From assembly GCA_051382295.1 (NCBI GenBank), contig JBBCAW010000024.1:1-15362 (forward strand): 15,362 nt of DNA, given 5' to 3'. The DNA is from Bdellovibrionota bacterium FG-1. GTDB taxonomy: Bacteria > Bdellovibrionota > UBA1018. Below the pieces are notes generated by a model. The model worked only from the letters and a program-made list of their open reading frames with translations, had not been told where the DNA came from and ran no database searches. Positions 1 to 15,362 of this stretch are shown piece by piece (position 1 is the stretch's first letter; every line of letters begins with the position of its first letter). A program made the translations under genes and the position numbers.

Positions 1-1
1 C

Positions 2-106
2 CCCAAGGGTGTCAAGATCGCGGATTCAGAAATGAAAGCCCTGCGCATGGACCTCCATCCAAATTTACCCAAATGGAACTACACCATCCGTCCTCAAAAA
101 ATGTGA
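2..106 (+). CDS. ISAzo13-family DDE transposase, C-terminal fragment (5' partial)
   Basis: Manual translation of frame 2: PKGVKIADSEMKALRMDLHPNLPKWNYTIRPQKM*. This matches the recalled ISAzo13 C-terminal signature YPKG(I/V)K(V/I)xDxEM...WNYTIxP. Not in the ORF track. Confidence 0.85.
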   Translation, partial: PKGVKIADSEMKALRMDLHPNLPKWNYTIRPQKM

Positions 107-129
107 AGTTATTGTTGGGCGGCCCCTTA
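107..129. mobile_element. Probable right terminal inverted repeat of the ISAzo13-family IS plus a 3-bp target (TTA, 127..129)
   Basis: AGTTATTGTTGGGCGGCCCC-TTA lies immediately after the transposase stop and resembles the ends of this family. The left IR is outside the window, so the boundary cannot be confirmed. Confidence 0.55.
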
Positions 130-1234: not shown

Positions 1235-1519
1235 TTAAGCCACCCGAAGGGTAACCATTAGGCCAAGATTTTGAGCAATATCGATCAGCCTGTCTGTCGA
1301 GATATGGGTCGTATTACCATTCAGAATCGCTGTAATGACGGTTCTCCCTACCCCTGCGCGTTTGGCTGCCTCGACATGGGTCAGATGTTTTTTTTCAACA
1401 GTTTTCCTGATTGCAATAGCGAGGTTAGTTCGCATCTCAATTTTGGTGGCTTGGCCCTTTGGAAGCTTGAGGACCTTCGCTAGGTCTTTCATGTTTTTTG
1501 CTTCAGTATAGTTTTTCAT
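1235..1519 (-). CDS. higA: XRE/HTH antitoxin (HigA-like)
   Basis: HTH LTHVEAAKRAGVGRTVITAILNG...ISTDRLI. Lies downstream of a RelE-type toxin with a 4-bp overlap (toxin-first order). Confidence 0.85.
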   Translation of the reverse strand: MKNYTEAKNMKDLAKVLKLPKGQATKIEMRTNLAIAIRKTVEKKHLTHVEAAKRAGVGRTVITAILNGNTTHISTDRLIDIAQNLGLMVTLRVA

Positions 1520-1836
1520 GCCATTTCTCCTAATCTTCTTTGGCCCGTCTGAATTTCGATTTTAGGTGTTTCTCGGGTTTTCTTTTTAAAAGCATGGAAC
1601 ACCAAAACCGCGTCTCGGAACTTAACAAAATAAAAAATTCGATATTGTCCGGCAGCGTTTTTTACCCGAAGCTCATGTGCGCCTTGCGCAATGCTCGGCA
1701 TAGGGCGACTCGCTGGCATTCCTAATGATTCACCCTTGGCGATCAAGGCCAACAATTCCATTATGTCGGCTCGGGTAAATACGTCAATACCTTCAAGTTC
1801 TTTTTCGACTTTCTTGTGAAAACGGATCGGCTTCAT
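1516..1836 (-). CDS. higB: RelE/ParE-superfamily toxin (HigB / phage Gp49-like)
   Basis: SRPMPSIAQGAHELRVKNAAGQYRIFY...VLVFHAFKKKTRETP is the typical Gp49-like HigB pattern. SD GAGG upstream. Confidence 0.9.
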   Translation of the reverse strand: MKPIRFHKKVEKELEGIDVFTRADIMELLALIAKGESLGMPASRPMPSIAQGAHELRVKNAAGQYRIFYFVKFRDAVLVFHAFKKKTRETPKIEIQTGQRRLGEMA

Positions 1837-2974: not shown

Positions 2975-3092
2975 AAGCAACGATAACAAGAGGTTTTATA
3001 GGGATTTTGAGGCCATCAAAGAATGGCTCAGAGAATTACGAATCGAAAAAATTGAACGAAGGAGACACCAACGCAAATCAGTCAATGAGTGA
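2925..3092 (+). CDS. Small charged hypothetical protein (55 aa; start uncertain)
   Basis: 3' part of ORF 2712..3092. Amphipathic FYRDFEAIKEWLRELRIEKIE. The stop overlaps the pilin start by 8 bp, but the ORF also overlaps 2792..2974 by 50 bp. Confidence 0.35.
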   Translation: MASASSESNEKTKGVTKSNDNKRFYRDFEAIKEWLRELRIEKIERRRHQRKSVNE

Positions 3093-3414
3093 AAATAATC
3101 GAGTTCAGGGTCTAGCCATCTCACGCTTGCTCACGCAAGCCGTGGGGGTGGTCGGCCTCAGTCTGATCCCCCTAATGGCCGGAACCAATCCGGCATTTGC
3201 AGGGATCGAAAGCATGATGGGCAATCTTCAGTCCGCCATCTTAAACGTCTTGGCTCCCATGATCTGTGTGGGTGGGATTATCTTCGCAGGATTTAAGCTC
3301 GCCATGGGGGATGAGTCGGCCAAACGAATGCTCTTTTGGAGCTGCGTCGGGACCGTCATCACCTTTACCGCGCCCTCGATCTTGTCCTTCCTGCAAACGC
3401 GGGTGGCATCATGA
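3085..3414 (+). CDS. Conjugative pilin, VirB2/TrbC family
   Basis: Long leader ending PAFA|G followed by two hydrophobic helices split by a charged loop (KLAMGDESAKR). Lies upstream of virB3/virB4. Start reassigned to ATG 3085. Confidence 0.8.
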   Translation: MSENNRVQGLAISRLLTQAVGVVGLSLIPLMAGTNPAFAGIESMMGNLQSAILNVLAPMICVGGIIFAGFKLAMGDESAKRMLFWSCVGTVITFTAPSILSFLQTRVAS

Positions 3415-3701
3415 TGAAGGATATAAGGGAAACAGCGGATTTAGCGGGGTTTCTTATTTGCCTCTGTCTGGGCTTTACCTTTTCGTTTGAGGTCATGATC
3501 CCGACTCTTCGGGATATCCAGGTGGAGATGATGAAATACCTGTTTGGCGTGGGCTTAGGATTTGGCCTGGGTGTTTGCTTTTATCTGATCTGGGTCCCGA
3601 TCCAGCATCTCATTGGCATAGCCCTTGAGAAGTTCGGAGCATTCTTGGACTCGCGCGGAAAAAAGCCAGGCAAAGGCAAGGAGGAGGGCTCCGATGAGTA
3701 A
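3411..3701 (+). CDS. Hypothetical 2-TM membrane protein (96 aa)
   Basis: ATGA-coupled to the pilin gene. Two hydrophobic segments and a charged tail. Confidence 0.65.
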   Translation: MMKDIRETADLAGFLICLCLGFTFSFEVMIPTLRDIQVEMMKYLFGVGLGFGLGVCFYLIWVPIQHLIGIALEKFGAFLDSRGKKPGKGKEEGSDE

Positions 3702-4005
3702 TGCGCAAGGTCTCAGTTATCCAGTGGCTAGAACTCTGGATGAACCCCCGCGAATCCTGGGGCTCTCGCCCACCGAGCTTGCGGCGTCAGCCTTGTTTTA
3801 CGCGATTCTCAGTCCAGTTTTGAGGGGGGTGCCGTATTCGGCGCTCCTCTCCTTGGTTCTGAGCGCGGGACTCACGGTGACGCTTTTGATTTTGGGACGA
3901 ACCTATCCGCCCAATCATGGGCTGTTTTGGGGGCTCAGGATGGTTCGGCCCGGTGTCACGTGGGTGAGCCCCATTCAAGAGGAGGTGTATCGCAATGCAC
4001 GCTAA
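3694..4005 (+). CDS. VirB3 / F-type TraL-like inner-membrane protein
   Basis: YPVARTLDEPPRILGLSPTEL is TraL-like. Two TM segments, SD AGGAGGAGG, directly before virB4. Confidence 0.75.
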   Translation: MSNAQGLSYPVARTLDEPPRILGLSPTELAASALFYAILSPVLRGVPYSALLSLVLSAGLTVTLLILGRTYPPNHGLFWGLRMVRPGVTWVSPIQEEVYRNAR

Positions 4006-6499
4006 TGGAAACTTGAAAGAAGCAAAAACCCTTTCGGATCTACTCCCATATTTGGGGGTAGATCCCATTGATGGGGGCCTGTGCCTCAAAGATGGGAGCG
4101 TGACTCGAAGCTTTCGGCTCGTTCCCAAGTCCTGCCTGACGGCGACTGAAGCGGATTTGGAGGGGCTTCGTTCCTCGCTTATTCGTGCTCTTTCGTCGCT
4201 GCCGGAAGGGGTAATTGCCCAGGTATGGATGAGCCGTAGTCAACCGTCAGGGTTAAATTCCCAGGCGATTGTGAATTGGAACCAGAGCCATCAACCAGAC
4301 GGTAAGGCCACGCCTTGCGGTCGGCAGAAGCTCTTTGAGGCTAGGCAGGCTCTTACAAGATCTTGCGAAGACGGAGGTACGGTATTTCAAACGGAAATTT
4401 TCGTCACTCTCCGCGTCTCGCCCGAAATCAAGGCGCAGCCCCTGGCAAGAATGGGCGCGTTTGCGCATTTGGCGTTTTGGCACAAAGCTGGAAAAGCAAA
4501 AAGCGTTCAGGACAAAACGCCAAGAACCATCGTGCAAGAGTTGAACGCAGCGGCGGAAGGCTTTCTCATGGGGCTTGAATCCGCTGGGATTGAGGCCTCA
4601 CCCCTTTTAGAAGTAGAGCAGGCGGCGCGAATCGCTGCCTTCTTTAATCCTGACCGTGAGGTTGAAGTCCTGGGGGAGGAAGAGGTCGTGGTCCACCGTC
4701 AGAATCTTTCAGAACGGGTCACGCTCACCGATCTGATTGAATCCAAGTCAGGGCTTGCACTCGGAAAAACCCGCATTCGTATCGGGACTCTTAAAAGTTT
4801 ACCAGAAAGTACGGTCCCGGCGCTGATGCACATTTTATCGGGCCAGCGCGTTTCGTTTGATGCCGTGGTGACCATCATGGTCTTGCCCCAGGTTCCCGAA
4901 CGGGAGCGACTGTCTCGAAAACAACGGCTCGCGCAGGGAATGGCCTCCGGCAACCAAGTCAGAAATCTTTATGCTGAAGGCCAGCTCCAAGAGATTGAGA
5001 ACACGCTGGGCGCAATGATTGGTCGGGGGGAGCGCCTCGTGGTCGCATCATTCCACCTCATTACGAGAGAACGGGGTGAAGTCGCACGTGGTGAGCTTGA
5101 TATTTTGCTAGATGAGGGGGCGCGTCTGGGACCCGGCTGTCAGTGGTTTGAGGAAACCGTCGGTGCGTATCCCGTCTTTTTTGGAATCTTGCCATTTGCG
5201 CCAACTTTTATTACCCGGCCTAAACGCATTCTCACCCCGGCGCTTACGGATTTATTGCCGCTTTATGGGTCCGGGCCCGGCCACGTTGAGGCATCGGTGC
5301 TTTTTGAAACGCTCGATCAGGGGATCATGGGGTATTCGCTCTTTGAGAAGTCCCCCAGTGGTAACGCGATTTTAATTGGCTCGACAGGATCGGGCAAAAG
5401 CACGCTTGCGTGCGGTCTGATCCTCGGAATGAACGCGGGCGGATCGAGTGCCGCGCCATCGAGTTTTGTCATCGACGTGGGTAATAGCTTTAGGCGCTCG
5501 CTTTTGTATTTGGGTGGAACGTCGCTAGATCTTTCGCCGGAAAACGGTACCGTGATTAACCCGTTTGATTTACCAGTGGGAGAAAAGTACCCAAATCCCG
5601 AGAAGGTCAAATTTCTTACGGCTTTTTTTGATGAGATTCTGGGCGACTGCGGCTCCCTCACCAAACTGGAGCGTGCGCTTTTAGAGGGTGAAATCTTTGT
5701 CTTTTACCGAAAAGACGAACCACCCACTTTAAGCCGGTTCAAAGCCCATTTAGAAAGCGCCGATCACCCAGATCTAAAACGACTCGCGAAACTTTTGATC
5801 CTGTGGTGCAAGCCCCAGCCCTATGGGCTCTTATTTGACGGGACAACAAACGTTACACTGGACGGCCCGCACCTACATTTTGAACTCAAAGGCTGCCAGC
5901 GATACCCAGATTTACTTCGGGTCGCCATGCTCGTGGTGATGGATCTGATTTGGCGCGAGGTCCGTGCGCGGTTTCCTAAACGCTCTTTGGTTGTGGTCGA
6001 TGAGGCGCACACGCTGATTCGGCCCTCATCCGATGGACGCGCGAACGGAGCCGCGCGCTGGGTGGAGGATGGCTTTAGACAGATGCGTAAATTTTCGAGC
6101 GCCGCGATTGCCATTTCGCAGACCGCAAAAGACCTTAAAAGTCCCGAGATTGGGGATGGGATTTTGGCCAATGCACCCAATCGCTTCATTTTACGCCAGC
6201 GCGGGGACGAGGTCACACTAAGGGAGGATCTCAAGCTCAATGAGCGGGAACTTGCCGAAGTGTTTGCACTTTCTCAGGTGCGTGGTGAGTTTTCGGAGTT
6301 TTTCCTCCACTCCGAGTCCATCAAGGGGACGTTTCGTTATCGGCCCACCCCGCTTGAGCTGTGGTTATCGACCACCCACCCACCCGACCTATCCGCACTC
6401 AAGGAAGCAGAAAACCAGCATCCCGAGTGGTCGCTCATCGAGCTGATGGATTACTTGGCTACAAAATACCCCGAAGGGGCAGAAGGGAGAATGGTATGA
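3995..6499 (+). CDS. virB4: VirB4/TraC-family T4SS ATPase
   Basis: 834 aa. Walker A GSTGSGKS, IDVGNSF, INPFD, Walker B VVVDEAH, RQMRKF...ISQ. SD GAGGAGG. Confidence 0.93.
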   Translation: MHANGNLKEAKTLSDLLPYLGVDPIDGGLCLKDGSVTRSFRLVPKSCLTATEADLEGLRSSLIRALSSLPEGVIAQVWMSRSQPSGLNSQAIVNWNQSHQPDGKATPCGRQKLFEARQALTRSCEDGGTVFQTEIFVTLRVSPEIKAQPLARMGAFAHLAFWHKAGKAKSVQDKTPRTIVQELNAAAEGFLMGLESAGIEASPLLEVEQAARIAAFFNPDREVEVLGEEEVVVHRQNLSERVTLTDLIESKSGLALGKTRIRIGTLKSLPESTVPALMHILSGQRVSFDAVVTIMVLPQVPERERLSRKQRLAQGMASGNQVRNLYAEGQLQEIENTLGAMIGRGERLVVASFHLITRERGEVARGELDILLDEGARLGPGCQWFEETVGAYPVFFGILPFAPTFITRPKRILTPALTDLLPLYGSGPGHVEASVLFETLDQGIMGYSLFEKSPSGNAILIGSTGSGKSTLACGLILGMNAGGSSAAPSSFVIDVGNSFRRSLLYLGGTSLDLSPENGTVINPFDLPVGEKYPNPEKVKFLTAFFDEILGDCGSLTKLERALLEGEIFVFYRKDEPPTLSRFKAHLESADHPDLKRLAKLLILWCKPQPYGLLFDGTTNVTLDGPHLHFELKGCQRYPDLLRVAMLVVMDLIWREVRARFPKRSLVVVDEAHTLIRPSSDGRANGAARWVEDGFRQMRKFSSAAIAISQTAKDLKSPEIGDGILANAPNRFILRQRGDEVTLREDLKLNERELAEVFALSQVRGEFSEFFLHSESIKGTFRYRPTPLELWLSTTHPPDLSALKEAENQHPEWSLIELMDYLATKYPEGAEGRMV

Positions 6500-7218
6500 A
6501 ATTTGAAAAAATTCGAAAATATTTTGAATGGTTTTCGATTGGCGCGATTACTTTTTTGATCGTAAGCCTCTCGGTCCCTAAGCGGGCTTACTGCCTATTT
6601 GGTGAGGAAATTCCCTTCCTAATCCAGATTATTACGCAGGCGATTCAACAGGTTCAGGAGCTTCAAAGCATTATCGGTACGGGCCGTGAAACGCTGGGAG
6701 TTCTCGAAGAAATGAATCGTGGGGTGAGGGACGTATTAAGGCTTGCCGACACCGCCCACCTCACTCTTCCGAGCCAGGTCTATAGTGACGCCGCTCAGAT
6801 TGATTCGGCCACTCGAAAGGCGGGGTTGCTTTACGGCGGCCTTTCAGATCACTCGCCGCTTTACGCTCGCACTCATTATCAAAGCGGGGTCGAGGGCTTA
6901 TTTTTGAGTGAAGATGCGTTTCAGTATTCTACTCAGCTTGATCGACAAGGAAACCAAATCAAAAATGCGGCAGTCGTCTCAAACCAGGCCACCGCAACCC
7001 GGCTCACCGCCGAAACGCTGGGGGTGATCCTCCATGCGGTCAACCACCAAAGCCGCCTTGAGGCCAAGCAACTGGAAATTCAGTCCACCCGTCACATCGA
7101 GGAGGCCGCCAAGGAAGATTCGCGCTTGGAGTCCTTCGAACAAACTCACGACGCGATTCAAAAAGACATGAGCGACGCCCAGTTTTCGTCGCTCAACTCA
7201 TATGGCCAGCATGAATAA
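6496..7218 (+). CDS. Secreted helical T4SS protein, VirB5/TrbJ-like
   Basis: ATGA-coupled start at 6496. Signal peptide ending AYC|L, Gln-rich coiled-coil, position between virB4 and virB6. Confidence 0.6.
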   Translation: MKFEKIRKYFEWFSIGAITFLIVSLSVPKRAYCLFGEEIPFLIQIITQAIQQVQELQSIIGTGRETLGVLEEMNRGVRDVLRLADTAHLTLPSQVYSDAAQIDSATRKAGLLYGGLSDHSPLYARTHYQSGVEGLFLSEDAFQYSTQLDRQGNQIKNAAVVSNQATATRLTAETLGVILHAVNHQSRLEAKQLEIQSTRHIEEAAKEDSRLESFEQTHDAIQKDMSDAQFSSLNSYGQHE

Positions 7219-7328
7219 GCTGATGGTCACTCAGAAAGGATTTTCAAAATACTTACATCAATACTACCGATAATTTAAGAAATACCTCGATAGCTCTTTT
7301 CCAGGTCAGCCAAGGGCTGTTTTGGAAC

Positions 7329-8255
7329 ATGCTGCCTTCGGCGTTTTTGTTCGCGATGTTCCTGATTTATGCCAAAGGGGAGATTTCGGGAGCCAAGCTC
7401 GAATCTTTATTTCGAAGGCTGATTGTCGCGATCGCTCTGCTTGTGGCGTTTCCGGAGATTTCTGGTGCGGCCACCGGCTTAGAAATGTATCTCGTGGCTG
7501 CGTTTGGCGGCGAAGCATCCCTGGCCCAAGTCTTTGGCCATGTCGCCACACGGGCTCACGAAATGGCCGGGGCTGGTGGGAGCAACTGGCTCAAGGTGGG
7601 CCAAATCGGGCTCACCCTGATTGCCACTCTTTCATTTTTGATTCTGTCCGTCGTAAGGCATTTTTTGGATGTTCTGCACCTGACTACCTGGAATTTGCTT
7701 CATGTCTTGGGGCCTATTTCTCTGATTGGCTGCCTTTTTGACTCTTGGCAACAGGTGCCCAAGGGGATCTTTGCCGGAATGCTTGAGCTATCGCTCTGGA
7801 AACCCGTTTGGGTGATTTTGGCCCGAATCCTGATTGCGATTGGGTTTGGCGAATCGCCCGCCGATCCGTCGCAGTGGTTTGATACGGCGGTGATGAACTT
7901 CGCCGTGGCAGGATTGATTGCGACCACGCCGCTCATCGTTCATGGGATCTTAAGCGGGACGCTTGCCTCCATCGGGAGCAGTGTTCTTCAGACAGGACTT
8001 GCTGGAACCGGAGCGTTCTTAGCAACCGCACCGATGCGGACGATTCAAGGCGGAATTTCCAAAGGCCGCCACGTGGTTCAAATGGCAGGAGGCCGCGCAT
8101 TATCGCGAATGATGCCCACGCGGCCACAGAACGGCCCACATCCGACATCAGGGGCTCCAAAACACCAACAACCCACTCGAAGTAACGGTCCTGGGGGTGG
8201 CGCAAATCGCCCCCCTATGCAGCCCAATTCGAGTCTAAACAAAGGAAAATACTAA
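7329..8255 (+). CDS. VirB6/TrbL-like polytopic membrane protein (start uncertain)
   Basis: Five or more hydrophobic segments, LLHVLGPISLI core, Gly/Ala- then Pro/Gln-rich C-tail. The frame is open back to 7224. Confidence 0.75.
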   Translation: MLPSAFLFAMFLIYAKGEISGAKLESLFRRLIVAIALLVAFPEISGAATGLEMYLVAAFGGEASLAQVFGHVATRAHEMAGAGGSNWLKVGQIGLTLIATLSFLILSVVRHFLDVLHLTTWNLLHVLGPISLIGCLFDSWQQVPKGIFAGMLELSLWKPVWVILARILIAIGFGESPADPSQWFDTAVMNFAVAGLIATTPLIVHGILSGTLASIGSSVLQTGLAGTGAFLATAPMRTIQGGISKGRHVVQMAGGRALSRMMPTRPQNGPHPTSGAPKHQQPTRSNGPGGGANRPPMQPNSSLNKGKY

Positions 8256-8259
8256 TTTT

Positions 8260-8853
8260 ATGGATTATTTAAAACCCATTGAACAACTGAAATCTCGAAT
8301 CAAATTCAATCAAAGCGTGATCTTTAGCCTCCTCGTCCTGATTGGAGTGCTTTTGGTCGTCGTCCCTCACGTTTTAAAAGGAGAACCCTATCTTGTAGAA
8401 GCCGTGGACGGGCTTCCTCAGATTTTAAAATCCGAACCTTGGCGGCTCAGTACGAGTCGGATAAGGGGATTTTCTCGGGCCTATCTGGAAGCCCGTTTTC
8501 ATTGGTCACCCGAAAGCATGGGTCAAGCCCGAAGTCGGTTTGAACCCCTCACAACCGAGGCCGTCTTTGCCAAACTCAAGGATTCACTCTCAGTCAATGA
8601 GGCGATTGCTCAAAATCAAAAGGCCGAGAGCTTTTACATCATCGAGCGTGAAACGTACTCCAAAGCCATGGACGGGGCCGAGTTACAAATCACCCGAGTT
8701 TTGAGAATTCGCAACGTCGGGATCGCCACACCGCTGATCATCAAACTGACGATCCAAGCCGCCCCCATCACGGATCAAAACCCCTATGGCTTTGTCGTGT
8801 CTGGGCTTGAAGAAGAGGAGGCTCACGAGGCCACCGAGGGGGAAAAGCATTGA
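8260..8853 (+). CDS. VirB8 / TraE-like bitopic protein
   Basis: N-terminal TM. C-terminal TDQNPYGFVV matches the VirB8 NPxG motif. Confidence 0.75.
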   Translation: MDYLKPIEQLKSRIKFNQSVIFSLLVLIGVLLVVVPHVLKGEPYLVEAVDGLPQILKSEPWRLSTSRIRGFSRAYLEARFHWSPESMGQARSRFEPLTTEAVFAKLKDSLSVNEAIAQNQKAESFYIIERETYSKAMDGAELQITRVLRIRNVGIATPLIIKLTIQAAPITDQNPYGFVVSGLEEEEAHEATEGEKH

Positions 8854-9548
8854 ACCCAATTCACGTCTTTACCTGGATGGTGGCTCTTCTTGCATTTGCC
8901 CCGCTCAGTCAAGCAGGGCAGGTGCGCAAGATTGAACTCACGGAAGATCATCCGGCAACGGTGACGCTAGCGCTGGGGCGTTCAACTGCGATTTCGTTTT
9001 TGTCCCGACCGGAAAAAGTAGTTCCAGGATCACCCCAAGCCATTCAGATCAATTTTGTGGGCAGTGACCTTACCGTCACGCCAGTTAGTCGTAAGCCCGG
9101 CAATCTGCTCGTTTACACGAAGTCAGCTCGCTACGTGATCCTGTTTGTGATTGGGGGTGATTCTCACTATGACGATGTGGTGAAGGTGGGAACCATGGGC
9201 CGGGGGCACCCGCTTCGGCTCCTCACTGACTCATTCCGTTTGGTGAGCTTCAAAGTGGTAGCAAAATCGCAGGCTGGCGAGCCGATTGGCGGCATACCGA
9301 GGGAACTTACCCTGCGTCTCATGACCAATGAGCGCGAAATATCGGGCCCGGACCTCGATGAGCTTTGGGGTCTGCCAGGCGTCATGACCGGCGCATCCAA
9401 GACCAAACTCCATTGTGAGGGGTGCCTGGTTCGAATCAATCTTCGAATCAATCAGGGAGGGATTCGAATCACCTGCATCAAACCCATCGAAAAGATTCAT
9501 TGTGAATCCAAGACGGTAGGCCTGGATTTGGAAAGGAGTGTCCCATGA
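8850..9548 (+). CDS. VirB9 / TraK-like secreted core-complex protein
   Basis: Signal peptide SQA|G, beta-rich N-domain (VTLALGRSTAISF...GNLLVYT), position between virB8- and virB10-like genes. Confidence 0.6.
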   Translation: MNPIHVFTWMVALLAFAPLSQAGQVRKIELTEDHPATVTLALGRSTAISFLSRPEKVVPGSPQAIQINFVGSDLTVTPVSRKPGNLLVYTKSARYVILFVIGGDSHYDDVVKVGTMGRGHPLRLLTDSFRLVSFKVVAKSQAGEPIGGIPRELTLRLMTNEREISGPDLDELWGLPGVMTGASKTKLHCEGCLVRINLRINQGGIRITCIKPIEKIHCESKTVGLDLERSVP

Positions 9549-10450
9549 GTGGCTCCGTACAAAATGACGGTTGGACCCAAAAACCTACGCTCAAAAGTAA
9601 TGGCACCCTGGCAATTCTGACCCTCATCGTGATGGCTTTCACCGGATTTAAATTAAGGCCATACTTGATTCATGCGCCCACAGTCCACGCCTACAACGGG
9701 ACGGAACAAACTCAGCAACGCCACGCGGACGAGGCGGTAAAAAAGGACGGGAGCTTCTCGTTGGTTTCGTCGATGGCAGCGCTACGACAACTCAAATTGG
9801 GCACCGGTGCGCGTTCTTCGTTTCATCCTCACGTTAAAGTCATCGAAAGGCCGCTCATGGATGGACTCACGGTCACGATAAGCGCCACCCTTTCGCGGGG
9901 CGTTTCATCGCTTGAGCCTGATCCAAGTATTGAGGCGGTCCTGGGGGGCCTCATTCGTGCCGAGGAAACTCGCGAACTCGACGACAGCCCCCTACAAGGA
10001 GCTAAACTCGTGGGAATGGCCGTCCCCAATATGGATCTCAAGCGAATGGTTCTGAGATTTTCGGAACTCATCACCCGCGACGGTAGGAGTTACGCCATTC
10101 AGGCCACCGCAATCGACTCAGAAACTCAGACGCAAGGGGTCGCGGCAGAATACTCGTCCGGGCTTGGGTCACGCCTCGCAGGGGTAGGCATCAGCCGGGT
10201 CCTGACTGCCGGAGATCAGATTCTTATGGCCAAGCTCTTGCCGGACTCCGGCAGTGCTTCGGTCGCTCAACAGGCCAGTCATGAGGCCGCACGTCAAATG
10301 AACGACCAAGCGGCTAATGACATTAGTTTAGAAACCACACGCAACCTTCGGGAAACCAAGGCCGAGCTATCACTTGCAGCGGGAACTCCGCTCACGTTAC
10401 GCCTTCGCGCCTTACCCGAACAAACTCAAAGGAGTGATTCCAGCAACTAA
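9545..10450 (+). CDS. VirB10/TrbI/TraB-like core-complex protein
   Basis: N-terminal TM. GAKLVG...KRMVLRFSELITRDG...GVAAEY...LAAGTPLTL pattern of TrbI beta-barrels. Confidence 0.75.
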   Translation: MSGSVQNDGWTQKPTLKSNGTLAILTLIVMAFTGFKLRPYLIHAPTVHAYNGTEQTQQRHADEAVKKDGSFSLVSSMAALRQLKLGTGARSSFHPHVKVIERPLMDGLTVTISATLSRGVSSLEPDPSIEAVLGGLIRAEETRELDDSPLQGAKLVGMAVPNMDLKRMVLRFSELITRDGRSYAIQATAIDSETQTQGVAAEYSSGLGSRLAGVGISRVLTAGDQILMAKLLPDSGSASVAQQASHEAARQMNDQAANDISLETTRNLRETKAELSLAAGTPLTLRLRALPEQTQRSDSSN

Positions 10451-10505
10451 ACCTAATCGTTTTAAAAACGTAAAACTGCTTGTCCGATATACCGGAGTGA
10501 CGGTC

Positions 10506-11810
10506 ATGCAGTTTTTTTCTAATCCGGAATATTTTTATATTTGGCTCATCGCAAGCTCGCTTGCCGTGGGCTATTTTGAAACCATCAACTATTGGTATTG
10601 GGCCGCCATCGGCGTGTTCAATCTATGTGTCGGAATCCTTGCCGTAGGCTCCGTCGTTCGGGTCGTAGACCGGGCGATGATGAGTCTAGGCCTTGGATTC
10701 GAGAAAACCGGCTACGGGCTCCCCACCTGGATCGTTAGGGGAGCCCGACCTTTCCAACAAGAAACTATTCGGGTTAAGTCGGCGGGATTTGCCGCATCCG
10801 ACTTTGAAAAACACCTCGATCAGATTTCTTCGCGCCTGTGTCTCCCAATTGAAACAGTACGAAAACTGTCGCCTGCCGTCCCAATCATCGAGTTTGTCAC
10901 CAAGAATGCACGGGCACCCAACACGTTGGATTACACGAGTCTCAAGCTCGAAGATCTCAAACCCGGAGAGTTCTATGTTGGCTTGGACGGGGTTAAAATG
11001 GTCAGAAAGTTCCTCGCTGATTTGCCGCACATGATTACTGCCGGGCAGACAGGATCAGGAAAGACAAACTTTATCCTGCAACTTCTCGTTACGATTTTAA
11101 GCCGAACTCCGTGGGCTCACATTTGCATGATTGACATGAAAGGGGGCGTAGACTTCCATGCCTTTAACGGTTTGGCCAATTTTGAAATGTTCATTAATCG
11201 CGAGGACGCCGCAAGTTGTATCCAGTCGATCGAAACAATATACGATGCACGCAACCTGTATTTACGGAAAAAAAAGTTGATCAACTGGAGCCTCCTTTCC
11301 ATAAAAGAGCTGTCCTCCGATCCCGCCATGAAAGGATTGCCCATTGGGCCGCTTCTTCTTGTATTTGACGAGCTTGCAGAGCTTTCTTGGAAAGCCAACA
11401 CTGCAAATCAGGGCGAAGAATTACAAGAACAACTGGCGTCGTTCACGCGTAAATGCCGCCACGCTGGAATCCACCTCGTTTTTGGGTGCCAACGGCCGGA
11501 CAAGAAGGTTCTGGGCATGCAGAGCAAGGATAACTGTCCTGCCCGTATTTGCTTTTCCGTTCCCTCCGTGGCCGCAAGTAATACGGTGCTCGGTAATATG
11601 ATGGCAACAACGCTTGGAGGGCATCGAGGGCGGGCCGTCTTTCAACTTGGGGATAATACTATTGTTCAAACACCCTATATTCGGACTGCCACGATCCAAG
11701 ACATGATGACGCAGGTGAAGGAGCGGATGACGCGCAATAAATATGATCGTCGCGTGGTTCAGCCGATTCAGATCACTCAAATCGCACAAGGCGGAGGGCA
11801 CCTAAGATGA
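10506..11810 (+). CDS. FtsK/SpoIIIE-family ATPase (TcpA-like candidate coupling protein / DNA translocase)
   Basis: Two N-terminal TMs, PHMITAGQTGSGKT, IDMKGGVDF, LLVFDELAEL, RHAGIHLVFGCQRP, GRAVF. Start set at ATG 10506 (SD GGAG). Confidence 0.88.
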   Translation: MQFFSNPEYFYIWLIASSLAVGYFETINYWYWAAIGVFNLCVGILAVGSVVRVVDRAMMSLGLGFEKTGYGLPTWIVRGARPFQQETIRVKSAGFAASDFEKHLDQISSRLCLPIETVRKLSPAVPIIEFVTKNARAPNTLDYTSLKLEDLKPGEFYVGLDGVKMVRKFLADLPHMITAGQTGSGKTNFILQLLVTILSRTPWAHICMIDMKGGVDFHAFNGLANFEMFINREDAASCIQSIETIYDARNLYLRKKKLINWSLLSIKELSSDPAMKGLPIGPLLLVFDELAELSWKANTANQGEELQEQLASFTRKCRHAGIHLVFGCQRPDKKVLGMQSKDNCPARICFSVPSVAASNTVLGNMMATTLGGHRGRAVFQLGDNTIVQTPYIRTATIQDMMTQVKERMTRNKYDRRVVQPIQITQIAQGGGHLR

Positions 11811-12670
11811 GAATACACACCACCTACCTACTTTATCAGGTGAGCCGATTTGGCGTTCTGAGGACTACTGAACTCGAATCCCTTTGCGCTGATAAATGTG
11901 GAAAGACCATTCTGTATGCCAATCTCAAAGAGCTGATTCAGCATAGGTATATCGAACGGTTTTGTCATCCTGAGATCTACCGAACCGCTTATCGAGCTAC
12001 CCCTATCGGCGTTAAATCGGCGTTTGGGCGTGACTCTGTCGAGCTACCCCGGTTTCGTGATTTGGAATCCAAACATGCCTTGCGTGTGGCCCAGACTTTG
12101 ATCAACCTGGCCCGATTCGAGAACGTTAGCGGTTTTGCAACAGCGCTGGAATTACCCGATGAATCAATGCGCAAATTTTCTCATCCAAAGGTCCCGGATG
12201 GGATCATTCAGTTATCACGAGGCAATGCCAGCTATGAGGTTGCCATTGAGGTAGAAGTAACACCAAAAACCAATCAAAGGTGTGATGACTTCTTGGACAA
12301 GTACCAGGAGGCGTTTCTTCATTCGTCCTATTGTAGTGGAGTGATCGTCGTTTGTGACGCGAACGATATCTATGATCGCTACTCGACTCATCTTGAAAAA
12401 CGAGACGAATCCTTCAAGGATCGGGTCCTGTTGATTCGAGGGCCTGGGCTCGAATCCCTGAATCCAGTAATCTACGGTACCCCCCGGAATAACCCCGGAA
12501 AATGCGGTGAATTACGCCGAAGTCATTTCGGGGCGGTAATCTCATATTTCCCAATAGTTTCCGCAAATCGAGACCAAAAAGCAGATTCTGTACCCCCACA
12601 AAATGGGGGGCAGTCAGAATTTTTGACAAATAAGGAGTTTTTGCAGCCAATCAGTCATTCAGGCACCTAG
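11807..12670 (+). CDS. Replication-relaxation (Replic_Relax)-like protein: winged HTH plus PD-(D/E)xK domain
   Basis: wHTH-like N-terminus (RFGVLRTTEL...LKELIQHRYI...YRATPIG), then HALRVAQ, KVPDGII, VAIEVEVTPKTNQR...KY. ATGA-coupled to the FtsK gene. Confidence 0.72.
   Translation: MRIHTTYLLYQVSRFGVLRTTELESLCADKCGKTILYANLKELIQHRYIERFCHPEIYRTAYRATPIGVKSAFGRDSVELPRFRDLESKHALRVAQTLINLARFENVSGFATALELPDESMRKFSHPKVPDGIIQLSRGNASYEVAIEVEVTPKTNQRCDDFLDKYQEAFLHSSYCSGVIVVCDANDIYDRYSTHLEKRDESFKDRVLLIRGPGLESLNPVIYGTPRNNPGKCGELRRSHFGAVISYFPIVSANRDQKADSVPPQNGGQSEFLTNKEFLQPISHSGT
12585..12620. repeat. Stem-loop within the 3' end of the Replic_Relax-like gene
   Basis: ATTCTG-TA-CCCCCA-CAAAA-TGGGGG-GCAGT-CAGAAT. 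Confidence 0.45.
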
Positions 12671-13383: not shown

Positions 13384-13587
13384 TTGACACCAGGACCCAA
13401 AAAGCTCATCGAACCAGAAATTAATTCGGCGAATTTACCGAAAAAAACGCCAGATTTTTCCATTTGGGAGAAAAAATATGGTAGAGAATTAAGTGAGTTG
13501 GAGAGAGTGGAAATTCGAGAAAACTGTTTAGGGTTAATGCGAATTTTAATCTCCGAACATCAAAGGGAGTCGAAATATCATGGCTGA
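13384..13587 (+). CDS. Small integrase-adjacent protein (candidate recombination directionality factor)
   Basis: WEKKYGRELSELERVEIRENCLGLMRILI. Overlaps the recombinase start by 8 bp. Start uncertain. Confidence 0.6.
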   Translation: MTPGPKKLIEPEINSANLPKKTPDFSIWEKKYGRELSELERVEIRENCLGLMRILISEHQRESKYHG

Positions 13588-15362
13588 ATTTCAGAAAATC
13601 AATGACCTCTCCCAATTCGCTTTGAGACGCAAATTTCAAGATACCGTGTTCATGCCGGAGACGAACTTCGCGGTAGCAATGGGCCGGGTCAGCGTGAAGA
13701 AAAACAAAGATTCCGGTAATTCGGACGTAGCCCAGCTTGAGACGATTGATGAGTACAGCCAAAAGGAAAAACTCACGATCATTCGGACCTGGGACGTATC
13801 CGAAACCGCATCGAAGCATGATAAGCGAAAACATTTTTTGGACATGATTGAGTCTGTCCGGGCGAGCCAGAACTCGGCTCGCCCCATTAAACATATTTTA
13901 TTCAGCCATCAGTCGCGCTCGAACCGCAACCGCGAGTCGGCTCGTGAGATCGAAGCTCTGGTCCGGTCGATTGGGGTCACGCTCCATTGTGCACGGGACC
14001 ATCTCAAACTGACGTCGCTCTCCACGCTTGAGGATTGGATGCGCTGGGATCTTTTCAACAATCTGAACGAGAAATTTATCAAGGACCATACCCGCAACGT
14101 CATGGACGGAACCTTTAAACGGGTCGAGATGGGCCTGCTCCCTGGCAAGGGTCCATATGGCTACCGGAACTACCGGGCCTCCGAGCGCGACACGAGTATT
14201 TTCCAACTTGTGGAGCCAGCGGCCACCTACATGAAGACGGCCTTCGAGTTGTTTTCAACCGGACGTTACACCGAAACCTCTCTTGAGGACGAACTGAAGC
14301 GCCGGTTTCCTGAGATTAAAAAGAAGGCTACGGCTAAGCGGCTTTCGGTGCTCTTGCGGAATCCATTTTACTACGGCGATTTTGATTATGGCGGCCAGAG
14401 GCACCAGGGAAATCCCGATTATCACCCTAGACTCGTGAGTCGCCAGATCTGGGACCGCGTTCAAGACGTATTGAATCAGCCTTCTAGGAGCCGCAAGGTT
14501 GTGAAGCATAAGCAACACCCTTATCTGGGGCTTTTACGATGCGGGGGGCTGCTATTGGATGCCGAGGGCAAGACCACCGAGCAATCCTGTGGGGCCGCAA
14601 TCACCGCCGAAGAGAAGCGCAAGAAGCTCAAGGACGGGACTATCAAGACCTTCTATTACTATCATTGTTCGCGCAACTCAGGACTTGCTGGCTGCTGCAA
14701 CCAAAGGGACAAAGGCTATATGGCATCCACTGGACGCAAGCGGTTGAACTTCAGTGAGTCGGAGATTGAGGCGCTGTTTGAGGTGATCGTCAAGCCGCTG
14801 TCGTTCACGCCCGAGGTCACCCAATGGATGCAAGAGGTCGTGCTCGACTCAAGCCAAGACAAAACCAAGATCCATGAAAGCCATCTCTCATCGCTTCAGT
14901 TTCAGTACCGGACCCTCGACCGCAAGATTTCCGCGATCTACGAAGACAAGATCAACGGCGTGATCGACACTGCGCTCTGGAAAACGACACACGACCGCCT
15001 TTCCGCTGAAAAGCGTACGGTGGAGAGCCAGTTGAGTGCTGTGAATGAGGAAAGAGGCGATTATCTGGAGAGAGGCGTGCTTCTCATCGAACTGGCGCAA
15101 GGTACTAGGAATGCTTACGGAAAAGCCACTTCGGAAAATAAGCGTAAAATCATTGAATTCGTTTCATCGAACCACGTTTTGGAGGGCGGAAGCTTCCGAT
15201 TTTCTTACAGAAAACCGTTCGATTTATTAGCTTCCGCCCCCTCAAAGGAAAAATGGTGGTCCCACCAAGAATCGAACTTGGAACTGATCTTTAGGAAAGA
15301 TCCGTTATATCCATTTAACTATGGGACCCCTGCCTCTGAACACAGCACCCCACCTATACTAC
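13580..15362 (+). CDS. Large serine recombinase / integrase (3' partial, at least 594 aa)
   Basis: Translated by hand from ATG 13580 with no stop to the window end. Catalytic AMGRVS (S38), SETAS, HQSRSNRN; recombinase domain GPYGY and LLRNPFYYG...HPRLVS...WDRVQ; Zn ribbon LRC...SCG...YYHC...CC; coiled coil. Confidence 0.93.
   Translation, partial: MAEFQKINDLSQFALRRKFQDTVFMPETNFAVAMGRVSVKKNKDSGNSDVAQLETIDEYSQKEKLTIIRTWDVSETASKHDKRKHFLDMIESVRASQNSARPIKHILFSHQSRSNRNRESAREIEALVRSIGVTLHCARDHLKLTSLSTLEDWMRWDLFNNLNEKFIKDHTRNVMDGTFKRVEMGLLPGKGPYGYRNYRASERDTSIFQLVEPAATYMKTAFELFSTGRYTETSLEDELKRRFPEIKKKATAKRLSVLLRNPFYYGDFDYGGQRHQGNPDYHPRLVSRQIWDRVQDVLNQPSRSRKVVKHKQHPYLGLLRCGGLLLDAEGKTTEQSCGAAITAEEKRKKLKDGTIKTFYYYHCSRNSGLAGCCNQRDKGYMASTGRKRLNFSESEIEALFEVIVKPLSFTPEVTQWMQEVVLDSSQDKTKIHESHLSSLQFQYRTLDRKISAIYEDKINGVIDTALWKTTHDRLSAEKRTVESQLSAVNEERGDYLERGVLLIELAQGTRNAYGKATSENKRKIIEFVSSNHVLEGGSFRFSYRKPFDLLASAPSKEKWWSHQESNLELIFRKDPLYPFNYGTPASEHSTPPIL
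15184..15239. repeat. 11-bp perfect inverted repeat just inside the tRNA 3' end
   Basis: GGGCGGAAGCT (15184..15194) and AGCTTCCGCCC (15229..15239). The left arm overlaps the palindrome CGGAAGCTTCCG (15187..15198). Confidence 0.6.
15254..15328 (-). tRNA. tRNA-Arg(CCT)
   Basis: Reverse complement GGTCCCATAGTTAAATGGATATAACGGATCTTTCCTAAAGATCAGTTCCAAGTTCGATTCTTGGTGGGACCACCA. 7-bp acceptor stem, anticodon arm GATCT-TTCCTAA-AGATC, T arm CCAAG-TTCGATT-CTTGG, encoded CCA. Confidence 0.97.

Follow-up and report, generated by a model that had tools for sequence, protein, structure and literature searches.

The DNA analysed here (the window), 15,362 nucleotides of Bdellovibrionota bacterium FG-1, takes up all of contig C24 in a 4.4-Mb assembly of 158 contigs with 5% contamination, the nearest named genomes being Bdellovibrionota MAGs. 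It forms the right-hand end of an integrative conjugative element. The window opens with the end of a multi-copy insertion sequence (1..129, plus strand), presumably ISAzo13-like, which has 127 bases in common with contig C35 and matches a copy on C13 at 83%. Several variants of this insertion sequence lie at contig ends. Because C24 begins at such a multi-copy sequence, the contig is interrupted there, the left part of the element is hidden and its left end is missing from the assembly. The insertion sequence is followed by a cargo ORF (164-1231) that resembles DUF4135/LanM dehydratases and has no obvious cyclase part, and by a Gp49/RelE-like and HTH gene pair on the minus strand (1235..1836), which we take to be a likely toxin-antitoxin module. 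Type IV secretion (conjugation) genes occupy 3085..10450 on the plus strand and include a pilin, a TraL-like protein, a VirB4/TraC ATPase, a TrbI/VirB10-like protein and unnamed ORFs. The transfer module (10374..12670, plus strand) encodes an FtsK-type ATPase and a MobC-like replication-relaxation protein, the MobC match of which (E 8.5e-05) lies under the curated cut-off. Two more conjugation modules related to that of the window are present on contigs C115 and C140 of the same assembly.

The right end of the window carries a large serine integrase gene (13580..15362, plus strand), the start of which is overlapped by a small conserved ORF (13384..13587, plus strand; alignment of 11). Among 21 loci whose integrases show 35% identity or more, 14 have an ORF of this kind immediately ahead of the integrase, 8 of which had gone into its model, and it is a candidate directionality factor or regulator. 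Searches of Pfam with the window member and of the Atlas gave no match. In several relatives the small ORF has an additional N-terminal segment of the form Cys-x2-Cys...Cys-x2-Cys.

Judged by its domains and fold, the window integrase is a large serine integrase. Pfam Resolvase and Recombinase domains are recognized, the former above its cut-off, with an N-terminal serine catalytic domain. Residues R36 and S38 (Arg-x-Ser) and the zinc ribbon cysteines C321, C337, C363 and C373 are invariant in 59 homologues, and the AlphaFold model contains a long helix pair (411-458/464-490) corresponding to the coiled coil. The model is confident to about residue 553, and residues 554-594 have pLDDT values below 50. 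A PDB sequence search gave a single match, to the catalytic domain, and the fold of homologue P0020 matched a serine integrase complex (Foldseek E 5e-18). By the alignment of 59 and the AlphaFold model, the catalytic, recombinase, zinc-ribbon and coiled-coil parts all lie N-terminal of W559, where the conserved part of the protein ends. The canonical large serine integrases (LI/A118, SPbeta, phiC31, Bxb1) have the same domain order and fold. To our knowledge, attP does not rewrite the integrase gene in these model systems.

The integrase frame contains no stop codon between 13580 and the contig end, a run of 594 codons, as the sequence-only reading of this DNA had stated. On the overlapping contig C52 the frame continues to a stop after 627 codons, giving a tail of 69 residues counted from W559. 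The stop codon of the integrated form is therefore supplied by the host, and its absence from the window is explained without an assembly error, one of the conditions under which the earlier claim would have fallen. The last 115 bases of the window (15248..15362, plus strand) are host chromosome identical to C52:19977-20091. They contain an intact host tRNA-Arg(CCT) gene on the minus strand (15254..15328; ARAGORN; Rfam 64.6 bits), which is the integration target, and a second, identical copy lies at C52:19983-20057. C52 holds the empty site, in which the tRNA is followed at once by the stop codon of a convergent gene for an MCP (chemotaxis receptor). Codon W559 (15254-15256) is the reverse complement of the CCA end of the tRNA, and identity between C24 and C52 starts at 15248, 6 bases ahead of this Trp codon. 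Thus, the join falls inside the integrase ORF, and the proposal that the attachment site lies within the 3' end of the gene is confirmed by the empty site.

Comparison of C24 with C52 defines a junction core at 15248..15259 (plus strand), in which the W559-W560 codons are the antisense of CCA plus the discriminator. The junction at W559-W560 is inside the ORF, leaves the tRNA intact and gives the integrated protein a host-derived filler. In relatives, the left and right junctions match over positions +0 to +5 or +6 from the Trp codon (the matching junctions include two left ends detected without scoring bases +3..+8), and identity drops after +5 to +9 from CCA. The crossover in the window probably falls within 15254-15259, and the last bases of tRNA-Arg(CCT) were probably supplied by the element. 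Further into the tRNA, the antisense of the T-loop (15272..15277, plus strand) is a candidate motif of the attB arm to which the zinc-ribbon domain is predicted to bind.

The sequence-only reading further held that the integrated and excised forms encode different C termini, and it called for the other attachment junction. That junction was not found in the window's own assembly by blast of the empty-site flank, motif scans, a weight-matrix scan of 23,371 sites or a search of contig-end overlaps. Since the left junction is missing, we infer rather than observe the free-form tail of the window element itself. The claim is borne out elsewhere: different C termini are found in 27 relatives with both ends, in a sister element and in a free phage genome. 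The sister element (C47:1-10966, L005; element of 10.7 kb) has both junctions at a tRNA-Glu gene and an empty site at C59:2236-2472 (L006), all in the one assembly. In the integrated state the integrase of this element has an antisense filler as its C terminus, and the left end of the element codes for a different tail of 17 residues. For two elements, therefore, the assembly holds the empty and the filled site together. The free phage is vB_MaeS-yong1, and its integrase is distantly related to the family, being 19% identical to the profile; the Trp of this integrase aligns with the family Trp, the tail motif described below is present and no tRNA lies behind it. A third integrase of the family in the FG-1 assembly (C28:5430-6950, L007) is frameshifted and ends in a 14-base tRNA- or tmRNA-like stub, behind which lies non-tRNA DNA.

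The arrangement at the window is that of a whole family. Among 401 genomes drawn from the phylum, 61 matched the integrase profile, and 73 loci were analysed after exclusion of one-place duplicates and of loci without the integrase end; one locus without an in-frame Trp was dropped, leaving 72. The position of the Trp was set by the protein profile only. A complete tRNA or tmRNA begins exactly at the conserved Trp codon, in antisense, in 59 of the 72 loci, including that of the window, and at any other offset within 12 nt of the Trp in none of the 72. Three of the other loci have partial or T-loop-like sequence and ten have none. The register of Trp with CCA is far above chance. The targets comprise 25 tRNA types and tmRNA, the latter in 6 of the 59 loci. 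A fixed pairing of one integrase with one tRNA was rejected, as at least 23 target changes are needed on a quick tree of 56 and one pair of 87%-identical integrases has different targets. Targets cluster on this tree nonetheless (23 label changes against a shuffled mean of 39.7). The pair in question, G041:C9 and G145:C5, consists of 46-kb elements at tmRNA and tRNA-Ala, respectively, and the similarity between them (about 80%) begins and ends exactly at the predicted element ends. A 17-kb internal inversion separates the two.

The sequence-only reading had emphasized that the integrase reads antisense through the entire tRNA. This is true at the window, but it is not a distinguishing feature of the family, in which integrated tails of relatives span 3-49 aa. 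The integrase frame crosses the whole tRNA gene in 16 of 53 tRNA loci, that of the window among them, and simple arithmetic gives a stop-free chance across a tRNA of (61/64)^25 = 0.30. Since 16/53 fits this expectation, read-through of the whole tRNA is accidental and was rejected as a selected feature. The layout reaches beyond the phylum, since a plasmid of Legionella adelaidensis (L153, NZ_LR134433.1) has the Trp at the CCA end of a tRNA-Asn, and on two gut scaffolds (L151 and L152) the integrase reads into tRNA-Glu and tRNA-Leu. Scans of viral contigs for the family gave 0 and 1 loci, the single locus being cut at the Trp.

The free-form tail was sought at the left ends of relatives. The motif Trp-x6-hydrophobic-Arg/Lys-Thr/Asn/Ile, defined post hoc from examples, five of which are natural proteins that a query truncated at W560 had retrieved, occurs at 18 of 109 upstream sites that share at least 7 junction bases, at 7 of 240 that share 6, and at 90 of 18,753 that share 5 or fewer. 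A weight matrix that ignores positions +3..+8 recovered 2 more left ends among the 20 remaining loci with at least 6 kb upstream; in the other 18 no left end was found, G255 among them having a weak candidate. The left-end set comprises 25 (23 via the motif and 2 by eye) and, with 3 natural junctions, 28 arms. In a set of 266 proteins, for part of which the underlying profile favoured motif tails, 217 have a C-terminal match; 88 of these carry a T-loop-antisense tail, 38 a very short tail, 18 the motif tail and 27 some other tail, and 46 have no Trp.

Part of the tail signal appears to belong to DNA. In 25 relatives (right arms only), a mimic of the antisense T-loop is present at the ends of the elements, displaced outward by 5 bp, with a mean identity of 0.57 at shift 5 and at most 0.34 at other shifts. 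In serine integrases the attP motif is reported to lie 5 bp further out than in attB (PMC3783163), and the available descriptions of integrases of the LI/A118, SPbeta, phiC31 and Bxb1 type give the same 5-bp shift between attB and attP as the relatives studied here (PMC3783163, PMC11722253). This geometry would place the crossover near +4/+5 from the Trp codon. Moreover, 24 of 27 Arg codons of the tail core end in A. Together with the shifted T-loop mimic, this suggests that the Arg-Thr core is largely a DNA site at which binding is predicted, and a purely protein motif was rejected on both counts. The same two observations suit an alternative in which attP merely happens to overlap the end of the gene, the part after the Trp is dispensable, the motif is a DNA site only and the two isoforms are alike, a separate factor setting the direction. 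It would also account for the position of every recognized domain ahead of the Trp and for the tolerance of such varied integrated tails, and the conserved small gene abutting the integrase start could alone supply directionality. A trivial reading of this sort was also given for another system by McMurdie and coworkers in 2011 (PMC3146451).

Three features of the tail argue against such a neutral overlap, which we consider unlikely. Firstly, conservation continues beyond the att site: the three closest long tails have 7 of 19 residues in common there, 5-6 of them via different codons. The remaining 12 pairs of long tails share 1-5 of 19 residues, and over all 15 pairs identity by codon position is 106/103/82 of 285, a modest skew. 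Secondly, tail codons 11-16 are free of stops in 27 of 28 arms, the corresponding counts for the other two frames being 21 and 20, and hydrophobic residues occupy positions 5, 8 and 12 in element arms. AlphaFold predicts a natural element tail as helical (pLDDT 64-68) and the antisense filler of the window as coil (below 50), although the value for the tail is moderate and both models were built on an alignment biased towards the element tail. Thirdly, the free-form tails are rich in terminal Ala. The counts are 23/46 for free-form tails, 9/58 for integrated tails and 120/1812 for long host ORFs, an enrichment of about sevenfold in free-form tails over host ORFs; terminal Ala-Ala is found in 10/46, 0/58 and 28/1812, respectively, in a post hoc comparison in which kin among the tails are not independent, so that p-values are overstated. 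Half of the free-form tails lack a terminal Ala, and one of these belongs to G094, which among relatives at tRNA-Arg(CCT) with both ends is the closest. Ala-Ala is the end of each of the six host tmRNA tags considered, and the host genome has ClpX- and ClpP-like signatures. The Ala and Ala-Ala ends resemble the ssrA degron, and they indirectly favour the stability switch that the sequence-only reading had suggested. The tail thus appears to carry both DNA and protein signals, and there is reasonable ground to think that it has a function.

The interpretation that we favour, and that is somewhat more probable than otherwise on these sequence features, is that the circle encodes a complete, short-lived integrase and that integration swaps off a helix and a tag, changing activity and turnover. 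The integrase would recombine at the 3' tip of tRNA genes, with attP some 17-30 codons ahead of its own stop; this geometry, taken alone, is very probable. It would read the conserved CCA end and the T-loop, and recognition of these conserved parts would allow the family to switch tRNAs easily. In the free circle an element-encoded tail would be restored, consisting of Trp-x6-hydrophobic-Arg-Thr and an amphipathic helix (about 29 aa in the clade of the window). The helix would complete the enzyme and would often be followed by an Ala or Ala-Ala end like those of the ssrA tags of the hosts, so that the circle would yield a complete but probably short-lived integrase. Integration would remove the helix and the tag in one step while the CCA end of the tRNA is restored. 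The integrated enzyme would keep all catalytic and DNA-binding domains and have altered activity and turnover. Renewed recombination of the inserted element would thereby be damped up to the point at which excision is licensed, the small protein encoded upstream probably taking part. A true switch of direction is doubtful. The full joint proposal is equally tentative: a widespread clade would set the direction and lifetime of its integrases by recombination within their own genes, the circle coding for an integration-competent enzyme, with the helix and a ClpXP degron stripped on integration to leave a stable, excision-poised form and with retargeting to nearly any tRNA or to tmRNA via CCA and the T-loop.

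A stronger effect of the exchange would be an inactive integrated form, which would lock the element until an incoming circle or a tandem junction provides a full-length copy. Precedent is found in the SSV-type suicidal integrases (PMC8371274), McMurdie and coworkers made a comparable suggestion for the recombinase DsiB (PMC3146451), and the integrated form of the window protein is modelled as unstructured beyond its last short helix. However, no catalytic part is lost here, in contrast to SSV Int(N) (PMC8371274), and a review reports the recombinant integrase of phage Mx8 to be altered rather than dead (PMC6070905). The co-occurrence of empty and filled sites for two elements also fits excision, but it would fit a mixture of strains as well. 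Inactivation is accordingly improbable. More improbable still is a mainly transcriptional effect, in which the change of tail is incidental and the integrase, once integrated, is silenced by convergent transcription of the tRNA; such silencing had been raised as a possibility in the sequence-only reading. The tRNA does point into the 3' end of the integrase in 59 of 72 loci, but promoter and terminator consensus scans were at chance level, a T-run follows CCA in the empty as well as the filled site, the empty site already has the convergent MCP gene ending there, and the conservation of the tail would be left unexplained, so the idea gained no support. That misassembly or binning joined integrase and tRNA is barely credible, since despite a fragmented, partly contaminated assembly and a junction 115 bases from a contig end, the same register recurs at 58 other loci, several of them in single-contig genomes, and the sister element has both ends.

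The favoured reading, in which integration exchanges the integrase tail, has relatives among known systems. The sequence-only reading cited SSV1-type tyrosine integrases and some mycobacteriophage repressors as att-in-gene precedents, but it overlooked a precedent among serine recombinases, DsiB of the Dehalococcoides ssrA genomic islands (PMC3146451). DsiB is a CcrB-like serine recombinase of about 540 aa, the gene for which always overlaps att at its 3' end. At ssrA the overlap of dsiB is with attL, the stop codon comes from beyond the island and the C termini diverge, and McMurdie et al. (2011) remarked that DsiB is perhaps fully functional only on the circle or beside a tandem island (PMC3146451). 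The overlap of integrase and att is therefore already published for DsiB at tmRNA (PMC3146451), and the layout of the window, with the gene/att overlap and the outside stop, works like the att-in-integrase systems of DsiB and Mx8. The target and module features of DsiB are absent. DsiB is specific for ssrA, whereas the window target is tRNA-Arg(CCT) and the family uses 25 tRNA types plus tmRNA; it has a 20-bp repeat with an inferred T-loop crossover, whereas the core of the window family is about 6-12 bp at CCA; and it belongs to a six-gene module, whereas the window element is conjugative (PMC3146451). No family matches to the dsiA-recF-parB-mom module were found among the upstream ORFs of the window, which are transfer genes. 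The CcrB match of the window integrase is weak and far under cut-off. A conserved tail on the circle, a degron-like end and an assay of activity are all absent from the part of the DsiB account consulted (PMC3146451), and the first two are reported here for the window family.

In Myxococcus phage Mx8, attP lies inside int and integration creates a new 3' end, which reportedly changes activity without abolishing it (PMC6070905). The recombinant 3' end is shared with the window integrase (PMC6070905; Islander, PMC4383910), but the Mx8 enzyme is listed among tyrosine integrases (PMC6070905, PMC4383910), whereas the window encodes a large serine integrase, and the tail is conserved across the family. 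In mycobacteriophage BPs and its kin, which show integration-dependent immunity, attP is located within the gene for the repressor, and the tyrosine integrase retains a tag of its own (PMC9262239). There the rewritten gene is that of the repressor, which loses a tag, whereas in the window it is that of the serine integrase, with a putative tag read from sequence (PMC9262239). The SSV-type integrases are archaeal tyrosine recombinases; as in the window, an att site at a tRNA divides the integrase gene that contains it. They have their catalytic domain cut off, whereas the window family exchanges only the terminal 17-30 aa (PMC8371274).

In the main texts searched, for the most part outside subscription journals, no description was found of CCA-end targeting of 25 tRNA types by a serine family or of a conserved or degron-like circle tail. 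The main text of Durrant 2022 contains no occurrence of tRNA or tmRNA, and its supplements may list such integrases. Islander excludes serine integrases (PMC4383910), and programs that locate islands by means of tyrosine integrases and longer fragments of tRNA would be apt to overlook the family. Should the tail have a function, most of the family's sequences in databases represent the wrong isoform, because the motif tail is present in so few of the proteins with a C-terminal match (18/217), and integrases mined from integrated copies would carry filler ends. The family supplies serine integrases with natural targets at tRNA ends. The open remark on dsiB made by McMurdie and coworkers in 2011 becomes concrete and testable with three isoforms, and if the proposal is true, self-rewriting and proteolysis would join RDFs as means of setting the direction of serine integrases.

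In the tRNA-Arg(CCT) locus of G094:C2 (L001:7650-7710), only about 60 bases of tRNA follow the integrase; a second island has probably displaced this fragment. At G255:C3:23020-27178 (L150), two integrase genes of the family lie head to head, and one alone adjoins tRNA-Pro. In G126:C1 and L099, two motif-bearing left ends lie about 1 kb apart, which suggests that they are relics of earlier tandem insertions.
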